A stretch of DNA of 64,000 nucleotides, taken from positions 737,145-801,144 of the forward strand of contig CBDHDB010000001.1 in assembly GCA_965261385.1 (NCBI GenBank), read 5' to 3'. A program made the translations under genes and the position numbers. Under the pieces are notes generated by a model, which saw only the letters and a list, made by a program, of their open reading frames with translations, did no database searches and had not been told where the DNA came from. This DNA is from Dehalococcoidia bacterium. Lineage in GTDB: Bacteria > Chloroflexota > Dehalococcoidia > Lucifugimonadales > Australimonadaceae. Shown piece after piece: positions 7,350 through 52,725 of the stretch (the stretch's first letter is position 1; every line of letters starts with the position of its first letter).

Positions 7350-7469
7350 CGTAGAGGTCTGGCGGTTCCGCCGTCCACAGCCCTACGCTGCGAGATGGCC
7401 CTCCCCTGCGAAATGTCATTGCTATACTCCCCTCTGTCGTTGCCCGAACCGGCGACCCAGAGGAGGACT

Positions 7470-11052: not shown

Positions 11053-11181
11053 GCCTATCTAAGCCTACCGCTCCCGCTGGCTTACGGCCAAGGGGGAGCG
11101 CGACGGCATCGGACCGCCGCCGTGGGGTTGTCCCCGCTGTCGTGTGTGGCAGGGCGGCGGGCCAACCCCACGCTGGCCCCG

Positions 11182-11967
11182 CTAGGCGGGCGCAGGACGG
11201 AAGGCGTTCTGCAGCGTGGGCAGATCGAAGCCTTCGGGCTGCTCGCCCATGACGTAATCGTAGAGCGCCGCCTTGAATACGCCCTCCAGGGCCTGGACGA
11301 CGGAGAGGGCGAACCCTACCAAGACGACGCCCAGCACGATGCCCGCTAGGGGAACAATCAGTGCTAGGAGCAAGGCGGGGATGACGGCGACAACGAACGC
11401 TGCGATGTAGACCAGGAAGAAGCCGAAGGAGGCGGTGAGCTGTCGCCCCCAGGTCTGGCGCACGATGCTAAACGACCGCTTGATGCTGGTGATGGGCCCG
11501 TGATTCTCGGAAACCATTACGGGCACCACGAAGAAGGTGAGGAACTCCCATGCGCCGCCGATGAGACTGACAACAAATTGGGGGAAGCGCCGTTCCAAGG
11601 CGCGGAGCACGATGTTCACCGCCGCTGAGATGATGGCCCACAGCACGATGTGGTGGATATGTCGCATCGCATGGCGTAGACCCGAGCCGATGTCCGGGTC
11701 GCCCCCGCGCAGACGCTCCAAGGCAGCGGAGATCAGCGCCGCGTTGAAGAAAACGGTGACGACGTAGGCCGCCACGAGGAGGATGCCCATCGCAATCATC
11801 GAGGTCTGGCCATCCCCTGACGACGAGGTCAGCACGGCGCCTACCAGCCCGATGGGAATCAGGCCGACGACAGAGAACACGGGGAAGAGAATGAGTTCCC
11901 GGTCCTTCATCAGCACCTCCCAGCTCATACGCATCAGAGCAAAGGTGTGCTTTATTGAGTTGAACAT
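11182..11967 (-). CDS. Membrane protein (DUF6159-like)
   Basis: 261 aa with the N-terminus MFNSIKHTFALMRMSWEVLMKDRELILFP and 5-6 TM helices. Confidence 0.5.
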   Translation of the reverse strand: MFNSIKHTFALMRMSWEVLMKDRELILFPVFSVVGLIPIGLVGAVLTSSSGDGQTSMIAMGILLVAAYVVTVFFNAALISAALERLRGGDPDIGSGLRHAMRHIHHIVLWAIISAAVNIVLRALERRFPQFVVSLIGGAWEFLTFFVVPVMVSENHGPITSIKRSFSIVRQTWGRQLTASFGFFLVYIAAFVVAVIPALLLALIVPLAGIVLGVVLVGFALSVVQALEGVFKAALYDYVMGEQPEGFDLPTLQNAFRPAPA

Positions 11968-12030
11968 AAGAGAGTCCTCCAGAGGCGAAGCGTAACTGGC
12001 CGGAGCATATATTGCCGCGAGCCAAGATGC

Positions 12031-12669
12031 CTAAAAGCTCTGCCGTCCTTCGAAGGCCTTGGTGAGAGTGAGGTCATCGGCGTACTCGAGGTCTCCGCCT
12101 ACCGGCAGGCCCCGGGCGAGGCGGGTGACCTTGGGGCCCAACGGCTGCGCAATCTGGCGGATGTACATTGCCGTCGCCTCGCCCTCCACGGTGGGGTTCG
12201 TCGCCACGACGATCTCTTCGATGGGCTCGTCGGCGATGCGCATGAGCATCTCGCGGATGCGCAGGTCTGCTGGGCCTATGTTGTTCATCGGGTCGATGAC
12301 GCCGTGGAGAACGTGATAGAGCCCGCGGAACACGTTGGTCCGTTCCAATGCCAGAACGTCCAACGGCTCTTGGACGACGCACAGGCGCGTCTGGTCGCGC
12401 GACGGGTCCGCGCATACCCCGCACGGGTCGGACTCGGTGATGTTCTGGCAGCGCGAGCAGAAGCCGACCCGGTCCTTCACGGAGCCGATGGCCTCGGCGA
12501 GGTCGTGCGCCTCCTGGGCCGGCATCCGGATCAGATAATAGGCGAGCCGCTGGGCCGTCTTTGGTCCGATGCCCGGCAGTTTATGCAGCTGATCGATCAG
12601 GCGCGCCACAGGCGGCGCGAGAGAAGGATGCGACGCCTCAGAGAAGCCTTGCGAGCCGTAGGAGGTCAA
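12031..12669 (-). CDS. recR: Recombination protein RecR
   Basis: HhH LPGIGPKTAQRLAYYL, Cys4 finger CSRCQNITESDPCGVC, and Toprim. The start is set at TTG 12669, just downstream of the ybaB stop; the ORF-track start at 12759 would overlap ybaB. Confidence 0.9.
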   Translation of the reverse strand: MTSYGSQGFSEASHPSLAPPVARLIDQLHKLPGIGPKTAQRLAYYLIRMPAQEAHDLAEAIGSVKDRVGFCSRCQNITESDPCGVCADPSRDQTRLCVVQEPLDVLALERTNVFRGLYHVLHGVIDPMNNIGPADLRIREMLMRIADEPIEEIVVATNPTVEGEATAMYIRQIAQPLGPKVTRLARGLPVGGDLEYADDLTLTKAFEGRQSF

Positions 12670-12676
12670 TGGCGCG

Positions 12677-12979
12677 CTACATGCCCGGGAGCTTGAGTCC
12701 GCCGGTGATCGCGCCGAGCCTTTGCGCCGCGAGTTCCTGGGACTTGGCGAGCGCCTCATTCACTGCGGCGAGCACCATGTCCTGCAGGATATCGACGTCC
12801 TCCGGGTCAACAGCGTCGGGGTCTATGGTGATGGACTCGATGGTCTGCTTGCCGGTCGCGACAACCTTCACGGCCCCGCCTCCCGCAGACGCTTCGACCA
12901 CCTCCGACTCGAGCTCTTCCTGGGCTTTGGCCAGCCGCGCCTGGAGCTGTTGCGCTTGCTTGAGCATGTTCCTATTCAT
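12677..12979 (-). CDS. ybaB: Nucleoid-associated protein YbaB/EbfC
   Basis: 100 aa with MLKQAQQLQARLAKAQEEL...GGGAVKVVATG, in the conserved dnaX-ybaB-recR order. Confidence 0.9.
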   Translation of the reverse strand: MNRNMLKQAQQLQARLAKAQEELESEVVEASAGGGAVKVVATGKQTIESITIDPDAVDPEDVDILQDMVLAAVNEALAKSQELAAQRLGAITGGLKLPGM

Positions 12980-12984
12980 GGTTC

Positions 12985-14967
12985 CTATTCCTCTCGCGGT
13001 AACCCGGACGTCGCTCCGAACGCAACGAATGTCGGCGTCTCGCCGGCAGCGGTCGGCTGGACGGGCGACGTGGTGGGTCCCGGCGATTGTTGGGCTATGG
13101 CCCGCCTGTCATCCGCCTCGACAGGGGCAAGCACGTCCTCGGCGGGCGTCTGCCTGAGGGGCGGCCCGATGGACGCGGACGTATCCTCCGCAGGCGCTTG
13201 CCGGATGGGTGGTTCTGCGGGTTCGGGCGTGTCTTCCGGGGGAGCTTGCTGGATGGGCGGACCTGCGGATTCGGGAGGGTCCTCCGTGGGAGCTTGCCTA
13301 GTGGGCGGCGGCGCGTCCTCGCTCTTGGAGACCACCTGACCGCCGAGGTTTACCGCCGCTTGGACGAGATGCCCGGCGGGGTTTTGCCCCTTCTGCCCCG
13401 ACGCGCTTCCCCCATCGGCACTGCTCTCAACCCTGATGGTGAAGTGATCCCCAAGCGCTTGCTGTAGGACCTTCTCGACCTCGATTCGGCACGGGGGGTC
13501 GTCCAGTTCGGACTGCAAACGTTCACTGTTGGACTGATGCGAGAACGTGACAACCACGGTGTTCCCGTCTATCGACCGGCTCGCCGAGCTCCGCAATAAC
13601 GCGGCCACGTCGAACTTCCGCCGGGGTACGTGGCTCAGAGCCTTGAGAATCGCCGGCCACTGGGCCGCGAGTCTCCGATCGACCGGCGCAGTGGGGTCGA
13701 AAGCGGGAATCGGGGCCGGGTCGCTCGGCGCGTTGGTCGGCGGGGCCTGTCGCTGCGGGGGTTGCTGGGGCCGAGGCTGGCTGGGCGCTCCTTGCGGACG
13801 GAACGGAGGCGGGCCAGGGGCGGGCCGACCTTGGGGCACGGCGGCGGGCGCCGGGGCCTGGTTCGCCGGGGCGGGCGCGGCCTGCTCAGGCTCCAGCGCC
13901 AACTCAACTGTGGCCAGCTCCAGGGGCAACGGCGACGGCTGATCGAACCGGAGGGAGACCTGGCCGAACAGTCGGAGCGCACGCATGATGTGCTCGATGG
14001 ACACGCTGGCCGCCGCGAACGAAAGTTGCGCCTGCGCCTCCTTTGACAGTTCGAGCGAGTCGGACACGCCGCTCTTCATCAGCAGGGCGGCGCGCAGGAA
14101 GTCGACCGTCATCCGGTGGAGCGGCCGCAGGTCCAGTCCTTCGCTTGCAACGGAGTTGATGACTTCGAGGGCCTGGGTGGCCTCGCCGGTGAGCAGGTGC
14201 TTCACCAGGGCCAATGCTCGGTCCTCGCCGCCCGCGCCCAATAGCTCGCGCACCTGCTCGACGCTCAGGCTCGTCCCGAAGGAGGTGATGAGCTGGTCGA
14301 GAAGATTCGTGGCGTCGCGCAGGCTTCCGCCTGCCGTACGGGCCACGAGGCGGAGCACCTCAGGCGAAGCGTCGACTCCCTCCTCCTGGGCGATGGCCGC
14401 AAGCCGCTCGACGATGTCCGCCATAGCGATGCGGTGGAAGTCGAAGCGCTGGCATCGGGAGATGATGGTCGCCGGTAGGCGGTGCGGCTCCGTCGTGGCC
14501 AGGATGAAGACCGTATTCGGCGGGGGCTCTTCCAGCGTTTTCAGAAAGGCGTTGAAGGCGTCGTTGGTCAGCGCGTGGGCCTCGTCGATGATGTAGACCT
14601 TGTTTCTGCCGAGCGTCGGTGCGAACCGGACCTTCTCGCGTAGGTCGCGCATCTCGTCGATTCCGCGATTGCTGGCGGCGTCGATCTCAATGAGGTCGAC
14701 AAAGCTGCCGTTCTCTATGGCGCGGCAGTTGTTGCAAGCACCGCAGGGGTCGCCGACGCCGGGAGGGCGCATCGTGCAGTTCAAGGACTTGGCGAGGACG
14801 CGCGCCGTGCTCGTCTTCCCCGTTCCACGAGGCCCGCACAGCAGATAGGCGTGCGACGCACGGTCGTTCGCGATGGCCTGGGTCAGCGTCTGGGTGATGG
14901 GGCCTTGCCCCACGATGTCAGCGAATCGCGGGGGGCGCCATTTGCGGTAGAGCACCTCGCCGCTCAC
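12985..14967 (-). CDS. dnaX: DNA polymerase III subunit gamma/tau
   Basis: Walker A GPRGTGKTSTARVLA, zinc module CGACNNC, DEAH-like IIDEAH and SRC motif. The C-terminal tau region is Pro-rich with tandem repeats. Confidence 0.95.
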   Translation of the reverse strand: MSGEVLYRKWRPPRFADIVGQGPITQTLTQAIANDRASHAYLLCGPRGTGKTSTARVLAKSLNCTMRPPGVGDPCGACNNCRAIENGSFVDLIEIDAASNRGIDEMRDLREKVRFAPTLGRNKVYIIDEAHALTNDAFNAFLKTLEEPPPNTVFILATTEPHRLPATIISRCQRFDFHRIAMADIVERLAAIAQEEGVDASPEVLRLVARTAGGSLRDATNLLDQLITSFGTSLSVEQVRELLGAGGEDRALALVKHLLTGEATQALEVINSVASEGLDLRPLHRMTVDFLRAALLMKSGVSDSLELSKEAQAQLSFAAASVSIEHIMRALRLFGQVSLRFDQPSPLPLELATVELALEPEQAAPAPANQAPAPAAVPQGRPAPGPPPFRPQGAPSQPRPQQPPQRQAPPTNAPSDPAPIPAFDPTAPVDRRLAAQWPAILKALSHVPRRKFDVAALLRSSASRSIDGNTVVVTFSHQSNSERLQSELDDPPCRIEVEKVLQQALGDHFTIRVESSADGGSASGQKGQNPAGHLVQAAVNLGGQVVSKSEDAPPPTRQAPTEDPPESAGPPIQQAPPEDTPEPAEPPIRQAPAEDTSASIGPPLRQTPAEDVLAPVEADDRRAIAQQSPGPTTSPVQPTAAGETPTFVAFGATSGLPREE

Positions 14968-22538: not shown

Positions 22539-23087
22539 TTACGAGCGGGGCATGGCTGGGGGTAGAAAAACGGTCTCATTTGGTCTCATTTGGTAGCATT
22601 TTACTCGTAAGCAGCCCGGAGCGACTGCGGGCGGCGGACGGCTTACGGGCCGGTTCCATGGTAGAGGTCGCAGGGGCGACGGGGCAAGGGGCAGGTGTCT
22701 TCCGTCATCCCCGCGAAGGCGGGAATCCAGGAACACCCTCGCGCCTGCTTTGGGTCCCTCGCCCGTCTGCGGGTGCACGGCAGTGGAGACCTGGGCTCGT
22801 TTGGTGTGCGTTACAGCTCCTACAGTTTTACCGAAGAGACTTGCGTTCAGCGTATGTAGCCGGCCGGGACGCGCCCAACTGTCTCTTAGCAGCTGGCCAT
22901 GCCGCATATCATTCTGTGTAAGCTCAATGTCCCCAGGACGGCTCTGCTGCCTGCTGGTTATCTCGCACAGCGCCCAATCGCCCATCCCCACGTCGGCAAG
23001 CACCAGGCAGGGCCGTATCTTGGCGGAGCTCAGGTCAGAGTAGGGGAACGGCGCCAAGACTACGTCTCCGACCACGCAGCCTCCCAA
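22539..23087 (-). CDS. PemK/MazF-like toxin domain with an aberrant ~70-aa C-terminal read-through
   Basis: The N-terminal ~110 aa (GDVVLAPFPYSDLSSAKIRPCLVLA...CEITS...) match the PemK/MazF pattern. The remainder reads through a REP-like element (..FLDSRLRGDDG..) and short tandem repeats. The start overlaps the end of the upstream RM gene. Confidence 0.6.
   Translation of the reverse strand: MGGCVVGDVVLAPFPYSDLSSAKIRPCLVLADVGMGDWALCEITSRQQSRPGDIELTQNDMRHGQLLRDSWARPGRLHTLNASLFGKTVGAVTHTKRAQVSTAVHPQTGEGPKAGARVFLDSRLRGDDGRHLPLAPSPLRPLPWNRPVSRPPPAVAPGCLRVKCYQMRPNETVFLPPAMPRS
22572..22601. repeat. Short AT-rich tandem repeat (GGTCTCATTT x2 plus degenerate GGTAGCATTT) near the left ICE junction
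   Basis: Read directly from the sequence. Confidence 0.8.
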
Positions 23088-26000
23088 TCGGGGTCGTCGG
23101 GCCTGCTAAACCAGTCCGCCATTCCGAGCATCGCCCATTCGTGCTTGTCGCGGTCGCCGTAGACGACGAGGTCGTCGCCGTCCCAGTAGGCCATGCCGTC
23201 CACGATGTCCATCGTCTTGACGCTCACGGCGCAGACGCGGCGCAGCAGGTCTATGACGCGTTCCTTGTGGTCCGCGAAGCGGTACGTGTCGAAACGCTCG
23301 GCGATGGTGGGGTCTTTCGGCTTGCGCTCCTTGTACTGGTCGAGCACCCACTCGAGGGCGGAGCGGTTGCCGAGGCGGTAGCGCCAGGCGTCCGGCGGCA
23401 CACCGGTGAGGCGCGTCGCGTCGTCGAGGACGATGACGCTATGTTCCTTATCGGCGTGGAGTTTCGGCTTGCCCGGCTCTTTACCGGTCTCCTCCCGTTC
23501 CAGGGGGTACGGCTCGGCGGACTCGAACCCGATATGCAGGTCGAGCAGCTCCTGTCCCATGCGCGCCCAGATGTCGAAATCGTGGTAGAGCGGCAGGCGC
23601 GGGAACTCGCGGAGCAGGTCGACGGCGTAGTCGTGCCGGTAGACCGGATCGTGGAGGACGGCGTAGGTGTAGGCGAATATCTGCTCGGCGGTGATGCCGT
23701 CTTTGCCGGCGACGTTCTCGAAGTCCTTCCCCCACTCCTTGCGGTAGTGGTCGTTGACCTGCCGCAGCCCCCACTCCGTGATGTTGCTGACGCGCTTGCC
23801 GTGCTCCGTGTAGCGGTAGAGGGGGAGGCATTGGGTGTCGCCGGTGAAATGCCAATCAGTCAAGTAACCCGCAGCCAGTGCATAAAACGCATTGCCGTTT
23901 ACGCAGAAGTTTATAACTTCGTTGGGGTGATACAAATCCGGCCCAAAGATTCGGTAATGATTACTGGTAAGTCTGTCATTCATCACTACATCGGCAAAGT
24001 AATGCTTGGCAACGAACGGACGATACAGTGATTGAGTAAGCCATTGTTCGGTATAAATGATTCGGCGTCCACGGTTGAAATGGTTACGAGTGGCTTCGCT
24101 CCACTTGATTACCGTATCATACGAATCGTCGTCCTGAGCCAAGAGTCTATTGTAAGTATCGGCAAAGAAAAGCACTTTAGCGCGAAGATTGCTGATTTCG
24201 AAATCGTAAACCCACCCATCCCGTGCCGTATTAACTCCAAGTGCGCTAAGGCTGAAAATCGCCCGTTCCTCGCTGATGTGTTTGGCGTACTTAGTCTGGC
24301 GGTTAGCTAAAGGAAGTAGCGAGCCGAAATCAGTGTCAGTCTGCTTGAGCCAGTTGTGCTCTACGTCAGGTAAAATACTTTCAAACGCAAGCTCGTTGAG
24401 CTTGGCTTGGCGCAGATAGGCTAGCTTATCTATCGCAAGCTCGGCGTCCTCCCGGCGCGCGTAGTGGATGCCGCATCCGCCGGTCTTGGAGCTATCCCGC
24501 ACGAAGAAGCCGATAGCTACGCCGGTCTGTATCCCAAATACGTTATGCGTGGTTCCCGCGATCTTTGGGTTGCGGCGTACATCGGAACCTAAATCGAGGA
24601 TGTAAAGTTCACTGAATTCTTTGCCCACGACCTGCCGGAATCCATCGTCCTGCCGCGCTTCGAGGTAAGCGCGGTTGGTGACGAAAGCGATGATTCCGTC
24701 GTCATCCAGCCGGTCGCTCGCCCAGCGGATGAACCGCTTGTACATGTCGTATTGCTTGGTCTTTTGGGCGGTGCTGGCTTTGATGTAGGTGTCACTAATC
24801 CGGCGGTCTATCTCCGGGTACTCGCGGTTCTTGTTGTTATCGTTCTCGTTCTGCTGGTTCGCGTTGTACGGCGGGTTGCCGATGACGACGCTGATCGTCT
24901 TCTCGTTCTGCTCTTGGACGCGCAGCCAATTCTCGGTTGAGAGGCCGCCGAGGTTGAACGCGCTCTGCCGCTGCACCGCCGCTCCGGTCGCGCCGGTCTG
25001 TTGCCAGCCCATGTTGTCCAGCGTGTCGACGAAGCAGAGATTGGGGAACTCGAGGTAGCGGCCGGTGCGCTCCTTGTAGGTGTACTCGATATTGAGGTTG
25101 GCGATGTAGTAGGGGAGTATCGCTAGCTCGTTGGCGTGCATCTCGTGGCGGTACTTGTGCTCCAAGCGGTCGAGGGGCAAGAAGTTGATGAGGCTGGTGA
25201 TGAACGTGCCGGTGCCGGTGGCGGGGTCGAGTATCTGGACGTTGACGTCGGCGAGCCCGCGCCCGAAGTGCTTGCGCAACAGGTGGTCCGTCCCTCGCAC
25301 CATGAAGTCCACGACCTCGTTGGGTGTGTAGACGACGCCCATGCGGTCGGCGGCGGCGGGGTTGTAGGTCTTGTAGAAGTCCTCGTAGACGGCCTTGAGG
25401 AACTGCTGCTTCTCGGCGTGGTCGGCGATCTCGTCGTCGGCGCGGCCGATGGCGCCGTAGTAGGCGCGGAGGCGGTCGATGGCCTGTCGGCGGATGTCGC
25501 CGGTGAAGAAGGTCTGTTCGAGGGCGTCGAGGCGCAGGGCGACGTCGTTCTCGCGGTGGAACTGCTCCTCGCCGAACACGCGGAGGAAGACATCTTTGGT
25601 GAGGATGTGCTGGAGGAGCATCTCCCGCACGTCCGCCTCCGAGACGTTGGGGCCGATGGTCTGGCGGCAGAGCTCGAGGAAGGCGGCGGCCGCTTGCTGG
25701 TAGCCCGTGCTGCCGGCCTCCGCCTCAACGATGGTGCCGCGAAGGTTCTCCAGGACCTCGGGAAGGTCGGTCTTGAACTGCGACCAGGCGTGGCGGAACT
25801 CCTCGATCTGTGGAAGCTCATAGTCGAGGAAGCGGCGGATGAGGCGGTGGAGCTCGTCGGGACGGCGCATGTCCACCCACATTGCCACGCCGTCGTTCTG
25901 GTAGAGGACGGCGGTCTGCGAGTCCTCGAAGATGATGTTGTCGCGGGGGTAGCCGCGGTTGAGCTTGCGCTGGATCTCGGCTTCGAGGTCGTCATCGGTG

Positions 26001-26242
26001 TCTTTCGCCTCCCAATAGCCGCGTGCCATGCGGAGCGCGTCCTTCACCGTTCCGTCGGGCCTGACGCCTGAGGGCAAGGCGAGCTCCGGAACGAGCACGA
26101 CGCGCTCCCTGTGCTCGCGGCAGTAGGCGGTGAGGCAGCTCTCGAAGGCCCGGCGAGTGCTCTGCTCGTTGGTGGAGCCGCCGAACTCGATGAGCTGTCG
26201 CAGCTCCTCGTAGTAGCGCTCGATGTGGGGGTGGTCGGGCAT
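23060..26242 (-). CDS. Fused restriction-modification enzyme (Type IIG / helicase-less Type ISP-like): N-terminal PD-(D/E)xK-like motif, gamma-class N6-adenine methyltransferase, C-terminal specificity domain
   Basis: Motif IV VIGNPPYNANQQ and an AdoMet-binding ILDPATGTGTF. The N-terminal RPDGTV...GYWEAKD fits PD...ExK. The C-terminal third resembles Type ISP/MmeI-type target-recognition regions. Confidence 0.75.
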   Translation of the reverse strand: MPDHPHIERYYEELRQLIEFGGSTNEQSTRRAFESCLTAYCREHRERVVLVPELALPSGVRPDGTVKDALRMARGYWEAKDTDDDLEAEIQRKLNRGYPRDNIIFEDSQTAVLYQNDGVAMWVDMRRPDELHRLIRRFLDYELPQIEEFRHAWSQFKTDLPEVLENLRGTIVEAEAGSTGYQQAAAAFLELCRQTIGPNVSEADVREMLLQHILTKDVFLRVFGEEQFHRENDVALRLDALEQTFFTGDIRRQAIDRLRAYYGAIGRADDEIADHAEKQQFLKAVYEDFYKTYNPAAADRMGVVYTPNEVVDFMVRGTDHLLRKHFGRGLADVNVQILDPATGTGTFITSLINFLPLDRLEHKYRHEMHANELAILPYYIANLNIEYTYKERTGRYLEFPNLCFVDTLDNMGWQQTGATGAAVQRQSAFNLGGLSTENWLRVQEQNEKTISVVIGNPPYNANQQNENDNNKNREYPEIDRRISDTYIKASTAQKTKQYDMYKRFIRWASDRLDDDGIIAFVTNRAYLEARQDDGFRQVVGKEFSELYILDLGSDVRRNPKIAGTTHNVFGIQTGVAIGFFVRDSSKTGGCGIHYARREDAELAIDKLAYLRQAKLNELAFESILPDVEHNWLKQTDTDFGSLLPLANRQTKYAKHISEERAIFSLSALGVNTARDGWVYDFEISNLRAKVLFFADTYNRLLAQDDDSYDTVIKWSEATRNHFNRGRRIIYTEQWLTQSLYRPFVAKHYFADVVMNDRLTSNHYRIFGPDLYHPNEVINFCVNGNAFYALAAGYLTDWHFTGDTQCLPLYRYTEHGKRVSNITEWGLRQVNDHYRKEWGKDFENVAGKDGITAEQIFAYTYAVLHDPVYRHDYAVDLLREFPRLPLYHDFDIWARMGQELLDLHIGFESAEPYPLEREETGKEPGKPKLHADKEHSVIVLDDATRLTGVPPDAWRYRLGNRSALEWVLDQYKERKPKDPTIAERFDTYRFADHKERVIDLLRRVCAVSVKTMDIVDGMAYWDGDDLVVYGDRDKHEWAMLGMADWFSRPDDPDWEAAWSET

Positions 26243-26251
26243 GGGCGGCGA

Positions 26252-28069
26252 TTATAGCAAGCCGCTCCTTTGGCCCACTCTCCCCCGCGCTTTGCTGCGC
26301 TCGCGCTTCCCCTCCCGCACCTTCCGGCGCTGCGCGTCCGCCGACCAACCAAACCCTAGCGCGCCGCCCCGCCGCGACATTTGCCCATTGCCCAATCCCC
26401 CTGCGCCCCCTACGATGGATTGCTCGTCATACCTCGATTGGAGAACCCAACCACGGGCGCGGGACTTCTTCCCTTCCTCCCCCGTCTGCGGGGGAGGTAC
26501 CGGTAAGGCAATAGCAACGGACTCGTCAAGGGGGACGCCCAAGGTGAGGAGCAGGTTGTTGTCCCGGCCGATCACAACCTCATCCACCACCATCTGGAGG
26601 ACCTCCCTGCGCTGAGCGGGGGTCAGATCGTCCATCCCCTCGCCAACCTCCCCCGCCCAGGTGAGGATCCCCTCCATCAGGGCCCGCTTCTGCGCCCCGC
26701 TCGCCTCCCTGGCGCGGTAGTCGTCCAGCTTTGCCCGCAGACTCTCCAGCCGCTCGGTGATGAACTTGCGCTGCAGGTCGAGCTGATTCTCGGTGATCTT
26801 CCCCGACACGTACAGCCTGATGGCCCGGTCTTCTTCCGACTGGACCCGCCTCAGGTCCCGCTCTGTCCTTGCGACCTCTTCGGCTGACCCCCCGTCTTCC
26901 TGCACGTCCAGGGCCTCGATGCCGGCGACGATGAGGCCAGGGTTCTGCAGGACGTTCTTCACCTCGCTCCAGACCAGTTCCTCCAACCGCTCCGCCCGGA
27001 TGAAGGGATGCTCCCTGCAGCGCAGGCGGTGCTTCTGCATGCCGTAGCAGTAGTAGTACCGCTGAGGAGGGTCGAGCTCGTACCGGTAGACCTTGCCGTT
27101 GCGCGTGATCTTGTTGCTGTTGTTCGTCTTTCCTCCGAAGAGCATCCCGCACTCGGCGCACCGGACGAGATGCTGCAACAGGTAGAACACCTTGGTGTTC
27201 CGCTTGGACCTGCTCAACCGCTGCTTCTTGAGGGCCTGCGCCCGGTCCCAGGTCTCCTCGTCCACCAGCGGCGTGACCGGGACCTTTATCCAGGTCTCTT
27301 GAGGCTGCGCGTAGACCCTCGTCCCGTCTTCCGTCGCAACATGCCGGGCCCTGCCAAACCACCAGGCGCCCTTGTAGGCCTCGTTGCCCAGAATGCGGTG
27401 AACGCGTGCTTCTTGCCACCGCGCGTTGGGCTTGCGCATGGGGATTTCCTCCTCGATCAGCTGCCAGGTGATGGACGCCGCGCCCATCCCCTCGTGGACG
27501 TACTGGCGGAAGATGCGCCGCACGACCTCGGCCTCGGCCTCGTCAATCTCAGGCCGGCCGTCGTCGCCGGTCCGGTAGCCGTAGGGGAGCGTGCCGGTCG
27601 GCACGCGGCCCTGCTTGGCCGCCCCGCGCCTGCCCATGGCCGAGCGCTCCCGGAAGTTGTCCAGCTCGATCTTTCCGATGGCGGCCATCAGGCCGAAGGT
27701 CTTCATGTCGATGGCGTCCATGACGGCCTCAATCCCTATCTGGTAGGCCTCGACGACCTCCATGAGAGCGGCGGCGGGGAACATGCCCCGGCTGAGGCGG
27801 TCCGACTTCCAGCAGACGATGGTGTCGAACAAACCCTGCTTGGCGTCGGCCAGCATCCGCTGGAACTCGGGGCGCTTCTTCGACCAGCCCCGGCCGATCT
27901 CCTGGTAGCGCGCGGTGATGGTCAGCCCCTTGCGCTCGCAGTAGGCCTCCATCTCGATGGCCTGCTCGGAGAGGGAGGTCTTGTCCTCCTCGGCCTGGCT
28001 CTTGTCCGAAACGCGGGCGTAGATGGCCGCTCGCTGTCCCTGTAGTTGCTGCGTCTTAGCTCTCGGCAT
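26252..28069 (-). CDS. Large serine recombinase (integrase)
   Basis: The catalytic N-terminus AAIYARVSDKSQ...SLSEQ, recombinase domain and zinc-ribbon CAECG...CYG, and coiled-coil are present. ATG 28069 is preceded by AGGAGG. The last ~90 codons look low-complexity. Confidence 0.9.
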   Translation of the reverse strand: MPRAKTQQLQGQRAAIYARVSDKSQAEEDKTSLSEQAIEMEAYCERKGLTITARYQEIGRGWSKKRPEFQRMLADAKQGLFDTIVCWKSDRLSRGMFPAAALMEVVEAYQIGIEAVMDAIDMKTFGLMAAIGKIELDNFRERSAMGRRGAAKQGRVPTGTLPYGYRTGDDGRPEIDEAEAEVVRRIFRQYVHEGMGAASITWQLIEEEIPMRKPNARWQEARVHRILGNEAYKGAWWFGRARHVATEDGTRVYAQPQETWIKVPVTPLVDEETWDRAQALKKQRLSRSKRNTKVFYLLQHLVRCAECGMLFGGKTNNSNKITRNGKVYRYELDPPQRYYYCYGMQKHRLRCREHPFIRAERLEELVWSEVKNVLQNPGLIVAGIEALDVQEDGGSAEEVARTERDLRRVQSEEDRAIRLYVSGKITENQLDLQRKFITERLESLRAKLDDYRAREASGAQKRALMEGILTWAGEVGEGMDDLTPAQRREVLQMVVDEVVIGRDNNLLLTLGVPLDESVAIALPVPPPQTGEEGKKSRARGWVLQSRYDEQSIVGGAGGLGNGQMSRRGGALGFGWSADAQRRKVREGKRERSKARGRVGQRSGLL

Positions 28070-28544
28070 AACTGCCTCCTCTCGTTCGTATCCGTAGAAA
28101 CCAAAAAGTCCCGCCTCCTGCCGGGAGCGGGTCTGCGAGCGGTAGAATACGCATCGCATCACCTGATCCAGCAGGTGGAGCCACGGCCCGGGGTGTTCAC
28201 GCACCGCCGGGCCAACCTCTACTTGAAAGCGTATCCCAGCCGCCTCAGGCAGTCAAAGGGGCGTTGTCACAACCCCGCATATGCAATCAGGCTATAGCAT
28301 TTCGCTGGACTCTCGCCTCTTCGATCAGGACTTCAGAGGTGACTCGCGTTTGATCCCTTCCTATCCTTGTTCGTCTGCCAAAATAGACAAGCCTGGCCCC
28401 TTCGCGTTAGTTGTAAGGCGCGGCAGAATCGTGGATTGCCATTTGCTATCCAGTTCACGTTCGCGTTACTGAGGATGTCTAACTCTGCGTTATGCGAGGG
28501 GCAGTTCGGAATTGCACTATGTCTAGGCCGGACGCAGATTTGTC

Positions 28545-29666
28545 CTACGTAGGCCTATTGTAGTCTGCCAACTGACATGCCGATCCAAACAATTCGACAT
28601 TCCAGTCGGTTACCGACGTAATCTTCTTTCGTAACCGAATCATCCCGTCAGACAAGCCTACTGTCCGGATCCTTGCGCCGCTTTCACGGATAGTCCTTTC
28701 TACGACGCTACTCCTACCTTGCAGGAGTCTACCTACAATGCTTTCTTGTGACCCTGTGACGTATGCCTCATCGGTAAGCGAGAGGATGCGAAGTGCGTCG
28801 GTTTTAGTCGGCAACGCTCGTCCACCTCTTCGCCACGGAGTGACTACTGCGATAGGGTCTTCACGCAACATGTCGTTCCATACGCGATTCTCATGTGCGT
28901 TTTGAGAACCGTGATGTGGCAACTTGAATACCGATGCCTTGGTATCCGAGAGTTTGTCGATATCGAGAATTTCTAACCATCCTTCGTTCTCGAGATCGGC
29001 ACCAAGAAGAACTACTGTCTGGTCTAATTCAATCAATAGAACGACCGCAGCCTCGTTGGGTGTCAATGGAGGAACACGCCTTTTAGGTTCCATCTCTTGT
29101 GGAACAAGACGACCTATTGCTTGGAGGAAGGCGCGGAATGCCCGATCCGAAGGAGAAAGGGACCGTATCCTGCAATTATCTCGATTGAAGATAATGCGGT
29201 CGGAGATGGCGTGTCTCCAAGTAGCAGACCTCTGTTCAAGGAGTGAAAACACTCTGTAGAGCTCCCGTACTCCAGAGCCAAAATCGGTTGCGGGTCGGTT
29301 TTCGAGCGCGCCCACGGCGGCAAGGAATTCTCTAGTAGTCAAAACGGAAGCGCAGCAGAATATGGCGTTGTCACAGATCTCGACCAATTGCCCCAGGCCC
29401 CGTATGTGGTCGTCGTGCCAGTGAGTCGCTACTATCAAGCAGACGGCTGTTGAAGGATCCAAACCTAGGCTGCGTAAATAAGTGAGCGCTGCGGGTCGAT
29501 AGTCGGTATCGAGACAAGAATCGACGACCACCCACCTGTCATTCCCGATATGAATTAGCACGCATTCCCCATAACCGGGGCCAAAGAGGCTTAGCTCAAT
29601 CTCATCTATTTGGGGAGAAAGAGTGGGCGTCACTGCTCTATCGATTTGGCTACTTTCATGGCCCAT
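28545..29666 (-). CDS. MBL-fold metallo-hydrolase (ComEC-like subtype)
   Basis: HxHxDH motif VATHWHDDHIRG and a distal KLPHHGS. ATG 29666 has a GAGG RBS; the alternative start GTG 29633 would form a GTGA overlap with the upstream stop. Confidence 0.8.
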   Translation of the reverse strand: MGHESSQIDRAVTPTLSPQIDEIELSLFGPGYGECVLIHIGNDRWVVVDSCLDTDYRPAALTYLRSLGLDPSTAVCLIVATHWHDDHIRGLGQLVEICDNAIFCCASVLTTREFLAAVGALENRPATDFGSGVRELYRVFSLLEQRSATWRHAISDRIIFNRDNCRIRSLSPSDRAFRAFLQAIGRLVPQEMEPKRRVPPLTPNEAAVVLLIELDQTVVLLGADLENEGWLEILDIDKLSDTKASVFKLPHHGSQNAHENRVWNDMLREDPIAVVTPWRRGGRALPTKTDALRILSLTDEAYVTGSQESIVGRLLQGRSSVVERTIRESGARIRTVGLSDGMIRLRKKITSVTDWNVELFGSACQLADYNRPT

Positions 29667-30259
29667 GCGAGTCCCTCGGATCTGTCTTGCATAGTCATGG
29701 CCGGAAGGTCGCGAATAACAATCTGTGAGATACGTCGCTTTGTTCCACTCGCAGAGCGCTCGTATCCGATAACCCATCGGAAGATGCTGCCTGGACGGAG
29801 TCGTTTCAGGTCATCCTCTGAAATCTCCGACAAGGGAATGACGGCCTCCTCCTCTTGCCCCAGGGGTGCCTGAACGCCAAAAGAGGCAGCGGTTAAATCC
29901 AGCAGCCGTGCTGTAAAGTCGGTCTCTCCTGTTTCAAGGACATAACCTTCCCATTCTTGAAGCGCATGCAGTGTTGGCGCATGCGAAGCTCGAGGCGTTG
30001 AAGGTTGGAGAGGGAATTCGATGAGGCAGCTATAGTTGGGATAACAATCAGTCGATGTTAAGTAATCGACGCTAGTTGGGTCTTCGATTCTTGTCGCAGT
30101 CAGCATAATGCCTTGGGCTTGGGTTGATGCGACGTAGACCTGTTTTGCATATCCCTCTTCAAATAGCTGTTTCGGAGTCAGGTTCTCCCAAGGATTCTCG
30201 GTGAAATCTGACGGAATAGGAAGGCTATTGCCCACTGGAGCTAATGCGGTGTCGGACAT
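29630..30259 (-). CDS. Hypothetical protein (middle gene of the low-GC cassette)
   Basis: 209-aa ORF. Its start lies 1 nt after the upstream stop and it overlaps the downstream MBL gene. No recognisable motif. Confidence 0.55.
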   Translation of the reverse strand: MSDTALAPVGNSLPIPSDFTENPWENLTPKQLFEEGYAKQVYVASTQAQGIMLTATRIEDPTSVDYLTSTDCYPNYSCLIEFPLQPSTPRASHAPTLHALQEWEGYVLETGETDFTARLLDLTAASFGVQAPLGQEEEAVIPLSEISEDDLKRLRPGSIFRWVIGYERSASGTKRRISQIVIRDLPAMTMQDRSEGLAWAMKVAKSIEQ

Positions 30260-30260
30260 G

Positions 30261-30956
30261 CTATGATTCCCTTAGTGACATGATATGGTCAATAATCTGG
30301 TCTGCGTGGCGGAGCGAGTCGTCAAAATGTGTTTCAAGTAGACTAACTATTTCGCTTGTTGCGGTCTGGCTCTCTGGATCTTCAATTGCATAGTGATCAT
30401 TGACCTGGACAAATACCCCTGTACCCTCTTTTCCTACGCGATTCGATGGCTGTACAGTCACGTTTAGCTGTCCACCCGGCGGTCTGTCCTTTATGCCTAC
30501 CTGTGTCATAGTAATCGAAGTCATGCCACCGTGCCGTCCATCAGGTCCAAGTTGTCCGGCCCAGGCACCCCAGGGCGCAATGGGTGCAAGTGTTCTGCCA
30601 AGCCGATCCCGCTCCTCTAGAGCATTGAATAGAAAATGAATTTCGCGATTGATTCCCATCGCCCCAAGGCGTGTATGAGGGAGTTGTTCTTGGAATATCC
30701 GGATTGTTAGATCCCGCAAACGAACAAATGGTGGTTGAGCGGTACTAATTAAGAAGCGATTGGGAAGAACTTGGAGGTGTAGCCAGTCTGCTTGGAACGT
30801 TGTGATCTGTGGTTGAGCGGTTTGCAATTCTGCAATGTTGACAGTGTTTTCGGGGAGTAGGCCGTACCAACCAAACCACGCAGGTGTAAAAATCGAAGGA
30901 TTGAAATTGCCAAGCAAGACAAGAGAAACGCCCGTTATTTCAGGTGGAATCCTCAA
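30261..30956 (-). CDS. Hypothetical protein (first gene of the low-GC cassette)
   Basis: 231-aa ORF with a TTG start preceded by GGAGAGGAA. The N-terminus is LLGNFNPSIFTPAWFGWYGLL. No family assignable by eye. Confidence 0.55.
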   Translation of the reverse strand: MRIPPEITGVSLVLLGNFNPSIFTPAWFGWYGLLPENTVNIAELQTAQPQITTFQADWLHLQVLPNRFLISTAQPPFVRLRDLTIRIFQEQLPHTRLGAMGINREIHFLFNALEERDRLGRTLAPIAPWGAWAGQLGPDGRHGGMTSITMTQVGIKDRPPGGQLNVTVQPSNRVGKEGTGVFVQVNDHYAIEDPESQTATSEIVSLLETHFDDSLRHADQIIDHIMSLRES

Positions 30957-31909
30957 CTTTGCTAGTTCCTCTCCGCACTCTGGACAATGGGACGTTGTGC
31001 GACAAAAATACGCTGATGTAGGTCTCCCATAAGCGTTAGAGTCCTTTGGAGGACACAGTGGTCACAGTTGTCCGATCTCCTAGGAGGCCTCCAGAGTTCG
31101 CATAGGGTCGGCAATTGCTATCAAGGCAGCCAGCTCTCCTTTGTGGGTGGGTAGCATATCACCTCTTTCGGTGCTTGACCCATTCCAGCGTTGCTGCCCT
31201 GGTTTGGGCCGATAGGCTATCTAACGCAGCTATACAGGTTCTCTCTTTGTACGGCCTCGGCCGTGGCCTGCGTCGGCATGCTGTTACCACGGTTGGTATT
31301 AGGGCCATGCGGGCGGAGCTGTGGCGTGGGCGAGTGGAAAGGCCCTTCGTGAGTCTAAGGGATATGGGGCAGGCCGACCACCGACGTACCCGTCGTAGGT
31401 CGGCCCTGAACGGAGCGTCGGTGGGCGATGACGTGGTTTGATGGCGTCCTAAGGAGGCCGCCTCTCGGCCTCAACATGACTGCCCAAAGGCGGCGGGACC
31501 TCCTCCTGAGCGGCACCCTGATGTTTGATAGCGTACTTGACCAGCATGGTGAAGAGGCGGCGCAGCCGGTCTTCGGCGTCGAGGCCGGGGTTGAAGTCGA
31601 CCCTCTCCACCCTCAGTTCCGGTCCAGTCCCGCCGGAGTTCTTCGGTCTCTTTCGGCTTCTCTTGTCTTCCATATATCGTTGTCCCGGTATCCACGGCGC
31701 AGGCAAAACCGGCCTGATGCGCCGGACCTGCGCTCATCCTGCCCGGCGAACCCGAGGGCCGCCGGTCTCTCGTTCAGCTCCCGATCATTCGAGCTTCCAC
31801 TCACATGTGTGCTTCTCCAGGTCTGCCATAGGCCGCCGGTGCGGGGACGGGTGGGCGCGCACCGGCAGCGTCGGTCGTGGGTTGGGTCGGATTCCGGTCC
31901 GCCGCCGCC

Positions 31910-32302
31910 CTATAACAAGGGGATAGGTCCTCCTGTTATGGCGAATGGGCAGGCGGGGCATGGCGTCGGGCCCCGCCTGAGGGGGACCTGGAAGCCCTCG
32001 TCGAAGCCCTCGCGGGCGAGGATCTGCAGGCCGCCGGGCGTCCGGAACGCAAGCAGGTAGAGGGAGTGCATGGCTCCCCCGCAGGGCTCCGTTCCCTTGC
32101 GCCACCGGAGCACCTGCTTGAGCCCCGCGCCCACGACCTGGGCGAACACGATCCAGGTGTGGCCGGTGGCCTTCTTCAGCCGGTTGAGGCGGTCCGGGAA
32201 GTCCTCCGGCAGCACGCCCTTTCCGGCGGGTCTGGAGTCGCCGTCGCTGGCGGCGCAAGACGGATAGCCGTCCAATAGGAGAGAAGAGTCACGGTTTGTC
32301 AC
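31910..32302 (-). CDS. Hypothetical protein, possible HTH domain
   Basis: 130 aa. Its GTG start forms a GTGA overlap with the stop of the upstream XRE-like frame. The central segment RLNRLKKATGHTWIVFAQVVGAGLKQVLRWRKG looks HTH-like. Confidence 0.4.
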   Translation of the reverse strand: MTNRDSSLLLDGYPSCAASDGDSRPAGKGVLPEDFPDRLNRLKKATGHTWIVFAQVVGAGLKQVLRWRKGTEPCGGAMHSLYLLAFRTPGGLQILAREGFDEGFQVPLRRGPTPCPACPFAITGGPIPLL

Positions 32303-32571
32303 TGCGGTTCCTCCAATCTGAAGAGTTCATGAAAGTCCTTTACGCCAAGTGCCTTCTGCATCCGTTGGCGGATGCGTCCCGAAGGCGCGCGCCCCTCGTT
32401 GACCAGCATGGAGAGGTAGCCCGGGCTGATCCCGGCCTCTCCGGCGAGCCAGCTCTAGGTGCGGTTCAGCACCGCCAACCGACCCCAGAGCGCGGCAGTG
32501 TTGAGCCGGACAACGGTCCGTCCCCGACGCCTCCGATAGCCTCTCGATTCGTTGTCTTCGTGCGAGCGCAT
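32299..32571 (-). pseudogene. XRE-family HTH regulator frame interrupted by an in-frame TAG (codon 39)
   Basis: ATG 32571 has a GGAG RBS. The frame reads MRSHEDNESRGYRRRRGRTVVRLNTAALWGRLAVLNRT*SWLAGEAGISPGYLSMLVNEGRAPSGRIRQRMQKALGV..., with the TAG at 32455-32457 lying inside the HTH. Confidence 0.5.
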
Positions 32572-32584
32572 AGCGTGGGTCTCC

Positions 32585-34288
32585 CTATGGGGAAGGGAGC
32601 GGGAACCTCCGCTCCTCTTCAGTGTGTTGGTCGTTGTTCAGCGGGCCGGGAGCACGCGGGTGAGCGCCCAGCCGGTCGGGGGTCCGCCAGACGCGTCCCA
32701 GCGGTCCCCGCTCGTCGATGGCCGCCTTGTGGGAGACCCACAAGGGGGTTTGGACCTTGGCCCGCGCCATCGCCTCCCGCGCCACGCGCAGGAAGTGGAC
32801 CGGCGCGATTTCGTCGTCGAAGACGACGAAGACGGCGGGCTGCGCGCCGTGGTCGTCGGTGGGCTGGTGGGAGGAGTAGTAGCGCAGGTAGGGCGCGAGC
32901 CGCGCCGCCATAGTCGCCGGGCGCACCGCGCGGCGCTCCCACTCCAGGAAGAAGGGCCAACTTATGGAACCCTTGCGCAGGACGCCGAAGGCGTCGGGGT
33001 GGACCGAGCGCAGCCCGCCGCCATGCCGGAAGTGCCTCGACGCGCGATGGGGCGGGTCGATCTGCGCGACCTCCCATCCCAGGTAGCGCGACTGCCGGGC
33101 CAGCGCCGCGATAAAGGCGTGGACCGCCGCGGTGTGCTCGATGTTTCTGAGCAGCTGGCGGCTTCTCCTCCCGGACACGTTGCGCCAGGCGAAAGAGGCC
33201 TTCGGCTCCAGGGGAGCGGCGCTCCAGCGCTTCCGCGCCACGCCCACGGAGGCGCGGTCGCGGCGGGCCAGGAGCGCCAGCCCCCGGTCGGCGAGGACCA
33301 GGCGTCCCCCTCCGGCGGCGACGCGGGCGACGAGACCGGACCCTTCGAGGAGGGCCACGATCTGGGAGGCGCGCGGCCCCGAGACGGCCAGCAGGCCCGC
33401 CAGGTCCCTCTGCGAGACCCAGGGCCAGTCGGCGAGCAGGTCGAGGGCGCGCTTCTCTGCGGGCTTCAGTAGGGCGGGCAGCAGGTGGCCGTGTATGTGG
33501 CGCCCCGGAGCGCCCATTTCAATGTCGATGGGTAGGGTTGCCCGCGAGAGGCGCCGCTCCACGGGGAGCGCGCCTCCGGGACGTATCCGGGCGAGCGCCG
33601 ACCGCAGGTCGAGGGCCGCGTTGACGGAGGGCGGACGCCATACCGAGGCGGCGCCGGACAGGACCGCCTCGCGCTCCAACGCGAGGAGCGCCGGGACGGA
33701 CGTGCGGGCGAGCAGTCTGCGGGCATGCCGCAGCCGCGCCTCGTCGGGCATGAGCATGAGGACGGCCCCGGGAAGCGGCCCCTCCCCCAGCCGCCAGAGC
33801 CGCTTGGAGAAGCCCGTCCTATCGGCGGCGCGTCCCTGCCGAACGATTGCGACCGTCCGTCCGCCGGGGAGCAGGATGGCGGCGTCCATGGGCATGGCCC
33901 TGTATAGCCGCAGGCGTATGGGGTGGGCGATGTTGGAGACGGCGGCGGCCAGGCGGTAGATGGCGGCGAGGGCATCGAGGCGTCCCAGCAGAATGCGCCG
34001 CCACTGGGCGGATAGCGGACGGGCGCGAATCAGGTCGTCGACGGTCACGCCCTCGTCCTGCGCCAGCCGGAGCAGACCGGCGGCGGTGAGGTGAAAGCGC
34101 CGGGTCGGCGGGACGAGGTCCGTTGCGTGGGGGACGGAAGCAACCAGCCCTCTGTCCTCCAGCTCCCGGAAGCCCTCGTAGACCGCGCCCCTGGACCAGC
34201 CGGAGACGGCGGCCATCTCCAGGCGGTCGAGGAAGGGCGCCGACGCCAGCCTGCGGAGCAGCTCTCCTTCGCACTGAGAAAGTCTCAT
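32585..34288 (-). CDS. Replication-relaxation family protein (putative relaxase/accessory) with tandem winged-helix domains
   Basis: Two MarR-like wHTH segments (AVSGWSRGAVYEGFRELEDRGLV and VSQRDLAGLLAVSGPRASQIVALLEGSGLV) are followed by a C-terminal HTAAVHAF...HPDAFGVL...FFLEWERR nuclease-like core. The start has an ATGA overlap with the T4CP stop. Confidence 0.55.
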   Translation of the reverse strand: MRLSQCEGELLRRLASAPFLDRLEMAAVSGWSRGAVYEGFRELEDRGLVASVPHATDLVPPTRRFHLTAAGLLRLAQDEGVTVDDLIRARPLSAQWRRILLGRLDALAAIYRLAAAVSNIAHPIRLRLYRAMPMDAAILLPGGRTVAIVRQGRAADRTGFSKRLWRLGEGPLPGAVLMLMPDEARLRHARRLLARTSVPALLALEREAVLSGAASVWRPPSVNAALDLRSALARIRPGGALPVERRLSRATLPIDIEMGAPGRHIHGHLLPALLKPAEKRALDLLADWPWVSQRDLAGLLAVSGPRASQIVALLEGSGLVARVAAGGGRLVLADRGLALLARRDRASVGVARKRWSAAPLEPKASFAWRNVSGRRSRQLLRNIEHTAAVHAFIAALARQSRYLGWEVAQIDPPHRASRHFRHGGGLRSVHPDAFGVLRKGSISWPFFLEWERRAVRPATMAARLAPYLRYYSSHQPTDDHGAQPAVFVVFDDEIAPVHFLRVAREAMARAKVQTPLWVSHKAAIDERGPLGRVWRTPDRLGAHPRAPGPLNNDQHTEEERRFPLPSP

Positions 34289-49658: not shown

Positions 49659-50165
49659 GTGCGCCGCGTCACGCGGCATAGGATTCCCGATTTAGTCAGG
49701 AGAGATTCGGAGGAAGTCTCTGGGCCAACCGACCCACCTGGCGGCGAAAGCCAAAGGGGACAACAGCATGTCGGTAAAGCGGCTACAGCCTGAAAGCGTT
49801 GTAGGGCTGGTTCCGCAAGGCCCGCGCGATACGGTGAAAGCTGGATTGCTTGAACCCCAGTTCCCAAGCGGTGAAATCGGCACCCACCGGTAGAACGCTT
49901 GCAACCCGGTGCCACTCATTACGACGGTCTGTAGCGTGGACTGTTGCACCTCCGATGAGTGGGCGATGACCGATGAGGCCTATTCAAGGGGACGAACGGG
50001 GCACCTAAGTCGTGCTATCACGTCCTATGTCAACGGAACGCGGGATTGCCTACGGGGGGAGACCCCCACGGCAACGGAGCCCTCGTAGTAGTCCGAGCCG
50101 GGGAAAGCCCGGCACATGGCGAAGGAGGGCAGGTGTCAACGACGGAATACGACAGAGAGGTACTC

Positions 50166-51941: not shown

Positions 51942-52067
51942 TCCGCAATCGCACCCGTCGGTAGTATCTGACCTCAGACAACTGAGGCCAGAGCAGGTGT
52001 AACAATGTCATTCCGCTGGGATTGATGATACACTACGAGGCATAATGCGTCCTTGGAGTGCTGATTC

Positions 52068-52628: not shown

Positions 52629-52662
<34 letters not shown>

Positions 52663-52725
52663 GGAGGGGGGCCGACGGAAAAGTGCTCTGATAACTCGGA
52701 GTAACTCGCCGGCGGCCTACCCTAC

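Follow-up and report, generated by a model that had tools for sequence, protein, structure and literature searches.

A probable DS-42-family immunity cassette with a predicted ComEC-like nuclease in the cargo region of a Dehalococcoidia integrative and conjugative element

RESULTS AND DISCUSSION

A compact cassette of three genes, here designated A, B, and C, was analyzed in a 64,000-nucleotide stretch of a Dehalococcoidia bacterium genome (contig CBDHDB010000001.1, positions 737,145 to 801,144, hereafter referred to as the window), where it occupies positions 28545 to 30956 as cargo of an integrative and conjugative element (ICE). Sequence and profile comparisons showed that all three proteins are, in the same order, remote homologs of the proteins of Escherichia coli DS-42. 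We conclude, with a probability of about 0.7, that the cassette, which is carried as ICE cargo, belongs to the DS-42 family as a divergent, horizontally acquired member in which the putative DNase C would be licensed by proteins A and B without the involvement of a protease. It is probably a real, mobile immunity module, and it is not a new kind of system. An earlier note on this DNA, made from the sequence alone, had proposed a defense or exclusion cassette and knew of no named system with this architecture. The first proposal is supported by the defense neighbors of the trio, by its nesting in Hma and BREX-related systems, and by the defensive remote homolog DS-42, whereas the second no longer holds, since DS-42 (Science 2026) has the architecture in question.

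Gene borders, junctions, and composition of the cassette

Gene borders were taken from the list of open reading frames (ORFs), in which the three packed minus-strand ORFs of 231, 209, and about 373 aa described in the earlier note are all present. The cassette comprises the following features:

30261-30956, minus strand: gene A, 231 aa, TTG start
29630-30259, minus strand: gene B, 209 aa, ATG start
28545-29666, minus strand: gene C, 373 aa counted from its ATG
30957-31468, minus strand: upstream noncoding stretch without a long minus-strand ORF

The stop codon of A and the start codon of B read TAGcATG, leaving the 1-nt gap that had been reported for this junction. The overlapping stop and start codons reported between B and C were refuted, because the ATG of gene C lies 37 nt within gene B; an identical 37-nt overlap is found at a related locus, L001. 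The longest ORF for gene C spans positions 28545 to 29777 (410 aa), its frame being open to 29777. The ATG at 29666 was chosen as the start; it is preceded by the Shine-Dalgarno-like sequence GAGGGA, and gene C homologs share an N-terminal MGxE with the 373-aa form. A GTG at 29633 is an alternative start that would give a GTGA overlap with B. For gene A, the Shine-Dalgarno-like sequence GGAGAGGA lies 9 to 16 nt 5' of the TTG. The promoter of the cassette is presumably located within 30957-31468. Promoter scans of the cassette surroundings gave no signal above chance, nor did terminator and flanking-repeat scans around the cassette.

The G+C content across 28 to 31 kb was 0.54, 0.53, and 0.49, compared with 0.62 to 0.74 on both sides, so that the AT-richer block described by eye within a GC-rich element is borne out by measurement.

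Homology to E. coli DS-42

Divergent trios were identified by tblastn on the Adhaeribacter swui plasmid NZ_CP055155.1 and on the Pantoea agglomerans conjugative plasmid pAR24_C, in the latter between two tyrosine recombinases. Blastn from the Pantoea copy gave matches in 14 to 15 of 5,426 complete E. coli genomes. In E. coli RM10466, E8, and ECOR29, a lambdoid prophage carries the trio between its antiterminator Q and holin genes, on the opposite strand relative to these two neighbors. It encodes proteins of 238, 190, and 363 aa, with a 4-nt overlap at the first junction and a 23-nt gap at the second. These prophage copies explain the matches to PHROGs, including that of protein C to phrog_28593 (2.6e-40).

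Protein C aligned with the MBL (metallo-β-lactamase) protein of the E. coli trio, WP_001198055.1, both by BLASTP (34% identity over 310 aa, E 2e-50) and by hhalign (probability 100%, E 2.7e-40). Protein A matched the first E. coli protein in hhalign when a broad A profile was used (98.5%, E 2e-15) and also with the close-family profile alone (95.0%, E 4e-8, 202 columns, ~20% identity). Protein B matched the second E. coli protein with the close-family profile (89 to 90%, E 2e-6) and with a two-subfamily profile (97.1%, E 7e-11), the aligned part being the 71-column C-terminal domain alone.

The E. coli proteins (WP_249925928.1/WP_000143147.1 for the first, WP_001024069.1 for the second, and WP_001198055.1 for the MBL) constitute PRO1, which is DS-42 and is listed as defensive = TRUE in Table S6 of DefensePredictor (DeWeirdt et al., Science 2026, PMC13092281). 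One RefSeq annotation names the first protein "anti-phage protein." When challenged with Bas1, DS-42 reduced the titer from 5e6 to 4e5 plaque-forming units (-log efficiency of plating of 1.10), and plaques were smaller (Table S7, PMC13092281). Its only annotated domain is a ComA/ComEC-like MBL, and it is absent from the main-text discussion, appearing in the supplementary tables only, with no mechanism reported (PMC13092281). We found no later paper on DS-42 in the literature.

The window cassette and DS-42 share a three-gene order on one strand, with products of 231/209/373 and 238/190/363 aa, respectively, overlapping or abutting junctions, a last gene that encodes a ComEC-like MBL, and carriage on mobile elements. 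They differ in sequence, A and B of DS-42 being about 20 to 27% identical to the window proteins, and in the net charge of B, which is basic (+6) in E. coli and acidic (-12) in the window. They also differ in setting, the E. coli copy being a prophage moron and the window copy being ICE cargo in a high-GC genome.

Distribution and horizontal transfer of the trio

A genome scan with one genome per species yielded 80 loci, and the addition of L001 brought the collection to 81. The 80 loci belong to metagenome-assembled genomes (MAGs) from at least 12 phyla, with carriers among Latescibacterota, Dehalococcoidia/SAR202, Poribacteria, Nitrospirota, Gemmatimonadota, Acidobacteriota, Rhodothermales, Alpha- and Gammaproteobacteria, Spirochaetia, Binatia, Thermodesulfobacteriota, and Opitutales. 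Compact A-B-C order was found in 76 of the 81 loci, the remainder being contig ends or insertions, and the homolog lists of A, B, and C share contigs. A second subfamily, in which A is 29% identical, was found with a three-sequence alignment of distant A proteins. It comes from soils, sediments, sludge, and peat, and A-B-C order was present in all 41 of its metagenome loci that had sufficient downstream sequence. No conserved fourth gene was found, the commonest neighbor being present in 12 of 76 loci. The three genes form an obligate unit across many phyla. Coinheritance in other genomes, on which the hypothesis of the earlier note depended, was thus observed in 76/81 and 41/41 loci, to which a natural A-B fusion (described below) can be added. 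In four loci (L025, L036, L043, and L079), 1 to 2 kb of extra DNA lies between trio members or C is missing; these gaps may represent insertion sequences or decay.

The cassette is horizontally acquired and mobile. In 62 of 66 related loci, its G+C content was below that of the flanks, with an average difference of 6 points. Phyla were freely mixed in a tree built from A and C, which did not follow taxonomy. An HMM (hidden Markov model) search with protein A returned 2,395 clusters at 50% identity; with this number, at least 12 phyla, and copies on ICEs, plasmids, and prophages, the DS-42 family is large and ancient.

Most genome loci of the window subfamily come from MAGs whose names and phyla agree with those of sponge and coral symbiont collections (e.g., IRC4, COS, RHO3, SB0662, Plut, PNGco, and SAR202 bin90). 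Published sponge and coral symbiont sets show enrichment and lateral transfer of restriction-modification (RM) and CRISPR genes. Together with the soil, sediment, sludge, and peat origin of the second subfamily, this suggests that the cassette is exchanged within a habitat, with the habitat link drawn from record titles.

Protein C is a predicted ComEC-like nuclease

Protein C gave the sole Pfam match among the three proteins (Lactamase_B, 2.7e-11), in agreement with the earlier observation that only the last product is recognizable. Its PADLOC matches were RTasMBL (4.3e-13), LmuA (5.5e-11), PDC-M48B (5e-6), and Avs1a (7.6e-4). The weak matches in PADLOC and NCBIfam are all to defense-associated MBLs or ComEC and lie far below curated cutoffs. 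In the PDB, a profile of 36 homologs detected nothing but ComEC-type MBL domains (9ic4, 6.8e-8; 30bt, 5e-6). The HxHxDH and ComEC-like KLPHHGS motifs noted earlier were both located and are invariant in homologs:

29406-29423, minus strand: HWHDDH (MBL motif II, HxHxDH); H82, W83, H84, D85, D86, and H87 invariant in 36 homologs
28905-28925, minus strand: KLPHHGS (ComEC-type motif V); K248, H251, H252, and G253 invariant; aligns with KVPHHGS of ComEC

The motif IV aspartate, D224 (in LLGADLE, upstream of KLPHHGS), is likewise invariant. At the level of sequence, protein C was shown to retain every metal-binding motif of ComEC-type MBL nucleases, and it is predicted to be a ComEC-like MBL-fold metallo-hydrolase that serves as a DNase effector. 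Compared with ComEC (9ic4), it has ~40 extra residues between motifs II and IV, which are well conserved and include a near-invariant GSG and a KRR stretch, and it carries a C-terminal extension of ~75 aa.

The likeness to ComEC/Rec2 consists of the HxHxDH...D...(K)xPHHGS set and of the fact that sequence searches detected no solved structures other than these domains. Unlike ComEC/Rec2, protein C is soluble and has no channel or OB domains, and no competence genes are nearby. Membership of C in ComEC was rejected (TIGR00361, 17.5 bits versus a cutoff of 190, with the MBL part alone aligning). Two other assignments were rejected as well. The 6A-MBL of Pseudomonas aeruginosa, which is described as having ubiquitin-related parts, matched over 60 residues (NF058524, 23.8 bits versus a cutoff of 220), and the cassette has no ubiquitin-like partners. 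For AVAST type 1, the Avs1a models scored far below cutoff (22.5 bits versus 420 for the NCBIfam model on C), and the window cassette lacks a STAND gene.

Proteins A and B define two unnamed families

Protein A had no significant match in Pfam, PADLOC, NCBIfam, or PHROG, and its profile had no sequence match among solved structures. Its 278 close homologs are ~231 aa in length. The AlphaFold2 (AF2) model of A, with a pLDDT score of 91.4, has the pattern beta-alpha-alpha-beta4-alpha followed by beta-alpha-alpha-beta3-alpha. Foldseek against the PDB gave best TM-scores of ≤0.33 (RepDE, AdoMetDC, and PYL), which are hints of fold class only. Against BFVD, the top match was a 202-aa phage protein (E 8e-11, TM 0.59 to 0.66), followed by TBP and VETF proteins. 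From the model, the fold of A is predicted to be a TBP-like or helix-grip pseudo-dimer. Across the wide A superfamily, the invariant positions are G, P, W, D, and N only, and no conserved Ser/His/Asp, Cys/His, or metal-site constellation was found. This restricted set of residues argues for A as a scaffold or sensor rather than an enzyme. A candidate NDH catalytic motif in protein A was rejected because N alone is invariant across the superfamily.

Protein B matched no Pfam, NCBIfam, or PADLOC family, its profile had no sequence match among solved structures, and none of its 740 homologs has a name. Its N-terminal ~95 residues are variable and predicted to be disordered (pLDDT of <50 for residues 1 to 22 and 37 to 88 in the AF2 model). 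The conserved C-terminal ~110 aa are modeled as a beta-barrel plus helix, with a mean pLDDT of ~88 for residues 96 to 209. Four motifs (LQxWEGxV, F.ARL.DLT, EEA..L.E.S..D, and G..F.W.IGY..G.R.S.I.FRRLP) persist between subfamilies. Weak Foldseek matches to OB/S1-like proteins (E ≥0.01) are hints of fold class only. The net charge of B is -12 in the window, acidic in most marine homologs, and +6 in E. coli DS-42. With the E. coli value at +6, the idea that B plugs the nuclease as an acidic mimic of DNA was dropped as a general mechanism. A retropepsin-like protease assignment based on the LLDLTAG motif of B was also rejected, as it had no fold or family support.

One of the clusters obtained with protein A is a metagenome protein, P0365 (438 aa), in which a Ser/Thr/Asp-rich linker connects domain A with the conserved C-terminal domain of B. 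P0365 could be a true Rosetta-stone fusion, or it could have arisen from a sequencing frameshift. The fusion argues for a complex of A and B.

Proposed mechanism

We propose that A and B form a complex that would sense infection or foreign DNA. The strict linkage of the genes, the 1-nt gap between A and B, and the natural fusion are the reasons for viewing the two proteins as a sensor or regulator complex. This complex would hold the C nuclease inactive until a trigger arrives, and licensed C may then act as a metal-dependent DNase on invading, and possibly host, DNA, with either degradation of the invading DNA or abortive infection as the outcome. Because no protease partner is present, licensing of C would proceed by protein-protein control and not by proteolysis. 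Related defense MBLs are Zn-dependent dsDNA nucleases (PMC12642450, PMC12799240).

Several points weigh against this reading. The A-B complex, the sensing, the DNase activity, and the licensing step are all elements that we infer. The homology of A and B to DS-42 comes from profile comparisons at about 20 to 27% identity, and in C the last ~65 residues fall outside the alignment with its E. coli counterpart. The phenotype of DS-42 is weak (~12-fold, one phage, and one screen row, in supplementary tables), and the phage challenge covers the divergent E. coli copy only and not the window cassette or its close relatives. No close relatives were found in the INPHARED phage collection or in IMG/VR, and many loci lie amid housekeeping genes, without a defense gene within three genes.

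Defense neighborhoods and a possible back-up role

In about 10 loci from several phyla, the trio is nested within an Hma operon, in the order HmaC (DUF499), DUF7680, A-B-C, HmaB (DUF1156 methylase), and a PLD/SNF2 helicase. All genes of these operons are codirectional, and in several of them the stop codon of C overlaps the start codon of HmaB or lies ≤40 nt away. In about eight Latescibacterota loci, a methylase and a restriction enzyme of type III, together with a SoFic-like gene, either enclose the trio or stand next to it. Other neighbors include Septu PtuA, PARIS/OLD-like ATPases, HEC-01A, and HEPN/MNT. In the second subfamily, BrxA, BrxB, and BrxC are immediately downstream of the trio at L090 and L091, and DpdF and PsyrTA also occur as neighbors. 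At L111, the trio has NACHT-HEAT STAND NTPase paralogs (57% identical to each other) on both sides (4832-7924 and 10595-13708, same strand). The trio thus co-occurs across genomes, and its defense neighbors recur; the earlier note had suggested a gene-neighborhood analysis as a check.

Extra genes stand beside the trio in the DUF7680-HmaB slot at L037 (12546-13748, 400 aa) and L066 (12537-17390, 375 aa and 1,176 aa), and this slot seems to be a hotspot where cassettes are stacked.

Embedded genes are present in 62.7% of Hma systems (Payne et al., bioRxiv 10.1101/2024.01.29.577857). Embedding in Hma is a good predictor of defense, since seven of nine Hma-embedded candidates that were tested provided it (bioRxiv 10.1101/2024.01.29.577857). 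In a 2026 survey, Hma was renamed a DUF499-centered BREX-related system, and embedded auxiliary nucleases were catalogued (PMC12839542). An MBL is not mentioned in either the embedding study or the survey. The trio sits inside Hma operons just as the Hma-embedded candidates (HEC-01 to HEC-09) and PADLOC PDC entries do, but no HEC or PDC model matches A or B, and C matches only PDC-M48B, weakly. The trio is absent from PADLOC-DB 2.0.0. The DUF499 ATPase, DUF1156 methylase, and helicase-nuclease genes of Hma are absent from the window.

These neighborhoods raise the alternative that the trio is an auxiliary or back-up effector that guards the adjacent RM-like system and fires, for example, when that system is inhibited, much as PrrC does with EcoprrI. 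The Hma nesting described above, with its shared orientation and tight junctions, fits such a role, as do the Mod/Res genes of the type III loci, BrxABC downstream at L090 and L091, and the type IIG enzyme in the window. Embedded nucleases have been proposed as back-up effectors in the survey (PMC12839542), and the Hma-nested loci occur at scattered positions within one large clade of the tree built from A and C. However, well over half of the 76 loci have no RM-like gene within three genes, and the partner system varies between loci. E. coli DS-42, in its prophage moron slot, has no RM neighbor and defended when cloned alone, and independent systems are commonly embedded. We therefore regard a back-up role as unlikely. 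The nesting of the trio in DNA-modification systems is most likely an instance of the embedding that is usual for independent defense cassettes, and obligatory cooperation with the enclosing systems is less likely.

Other alternative explanations

The cassette could also be a toxin-antitoxin-like addiction module that stabilizes ICEs, plasmids, and prophages, with C as DNase toxin, B as labile inhibitor, and A as regulator or third component. In its gene order and in the 37-nt overlap between genes B and C, the cassette resembles antitoxin-toxin pairs. Moreover, B has a long disordered region, the known carriers include an ICE, two plasmids, and prophages, and MazF is nearby in the window. We consider this improbable, given the many chromosomal copies that lie amid housekeeping genes with no evident mobile element and the E. 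coli homolog that lowered phage plating. In addition, the net charge of B (-12 versus +6) is not conserved, which makes a common role as a DNA-mimic inhibitor doubtful. Toxin-antitoxin and abortive-infection roles are not exclusive, so this alternative is in part a sub-case of the proposed A- and B-licensed nuclease.

The MBLs of the Hachiman (HamM), AVAST, Lamassu, DRT, and Canu defense systems are zymogen dsDNA nucleases (PMC12799240, PMC12642450, bioRxiv 10.1101/2025.09.03.673762). They are activated when an adjacent trypsin-, caspase-, or subtilisin-like protease cuts two occluding linkers (PMC12799240, PMC12642450, bioRxiv 10.1101/2025.09.03.673762). Like these systems, which cause abortive infection through their MBLs, the window trio has a ComEC-like MBL effector, and with Canu it shares a three-gene operon in which the nuclease comes last. 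It might then be a protease-gated zymogen like HamM, the Avs MBL, or CanC, with A or B as a cryptic protease that cuts linkers in C. The best PADLOC matches of C (RTasMBL, LmuA, and Avs1a; 4e-13 to 8e-4) are indeed protease-associated MBL zymogens, the ~40 extra residues with GSG and KRR could be read in the same way, and MBL clades are partnered with several protease families in published trees. The trio differs from these systems, however, in having no trypsin, caspase, or subtilisin partner, A and B being small and unrelated. Pfam, NCBIfam, PADLOC, and PHROGs detected no protease domain in either protein, and A has no conserved catalytic constellation. Moreover, the extra segment of C is well conserved and not loop-like, and the matches of C to the protease-linked MBL models lie far below family level. 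Gating of C by a protease is accordingly judged very improbable.

The MBL enzyme and two accessory proteins might instead have a housekeeping or metabolic role, namely, DNA uptake or competence, repair, or the hydrolysis of small molecules. The ComEC domains as nearest solved relatives of C and the metabolic genes around some loci might speak for such a role, but it can be practically dismissed in view of the lack of membrane or competence genes nearby and of ComEC channel domains in C, the patchy distribution, foreign composition, and incongruent phylogeny of the trio, its recurrent defense neighbors, and a homolog scored as defensive. Nor was any match found to a metabolic or competence operon, which the earlier note had named as a finding that would speak against its hypothesis.

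Implications for MBL nucleases in defense

Until now, DS-42 has been a supplementary-table entry with a weak phenotype in one host. What is new here is how large and broad the family is, that its trio is invariant, and that it is embedded in Hma/BREX-related, type III RM, and BREX systems, together with the A-B fusion, the fold assignments, and the lack of a protease partner. Proteins A and B were identified as two unnamed families. Protein C would be a defense MBL nuclease that lacks the protease partner present with every characterized defense MBL. As a tentative generalization, which is possible but which we would not rely on, the DS-42 family may represent protease-independent licensing of an MBL DNase, in which a sensor made of A, a TBP-like pseudo-dimer, and B, a small beta-barrel protein whose disordered tail is hypervariable, directly gates the nuclease, possibly upon damage to or inhibition of the DNA-modification systems that often enclose the cassette. 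If this is true, the trio would be a widespread guard module, especially abundant and horizontally exchanged among apparent sponge and coral symbionts. The E. coli, Pantoea, and Adhaeribacter copies offer entry points to the control of an MBL DNase without proteolysis.

The host element and other genes of the window

The cassette block lies between a serine recombinase and conjugation genes, and its immediate neighbors are the recombinase and a gene without a Pfam family. The surroundings described in the earlier note (serine integrase, conjugation genes, fused RM enzyme, and MazF-like toxin) were all confirmed:

26252-28204: serine recombinase
23060-26242: fused type IIG RM enzyme, PADLOC 938 bits
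22539-23087, minus strand: PemK/MazF toxin, Pfam 7e-10 over the first 105 residues
32.6-43 kb: Replic_Relax, T4 coupling protein, and TrbL

The PemK/MazF ORF and the 3' end of the type IIG RM gene share ~28 nt. On the same strand, an interval of 10 nt separates the end of the RM gene from the start of the serine recombinase ORF. The segment of the RM gene at 24 to 25 kb is also GC-poor (0.54). Because of this 10-nt spacing and the GC-poor segment, the RM gene and MazF are probably part of the mobile element and not of the host. Together with the cassette, they mark the left arm of the ICE as a defense cargo region.

The same element is present in another sample, as locus L083, with 99.1% identity over window positions 28752 to 33509. 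A single 277-aa gene of L083 (1210-2043) corresponds to window positions 31469-32302 on the minus strand, where the window has two ORFs (31910-32302 and 31471-31737). Either a frameshift in the window or an error in the contig of 2x coverage could account for the split. The 130-aa product of the ORF at 31910-32302 has no Pfam family.

A second GC-poor patch is located at 50000-53000 (0.58 to 0.59 versus ~0.70). A plus-strand ORF of 631 aa (50046-51941) lies within this patch and may be another cargo gene of the element.

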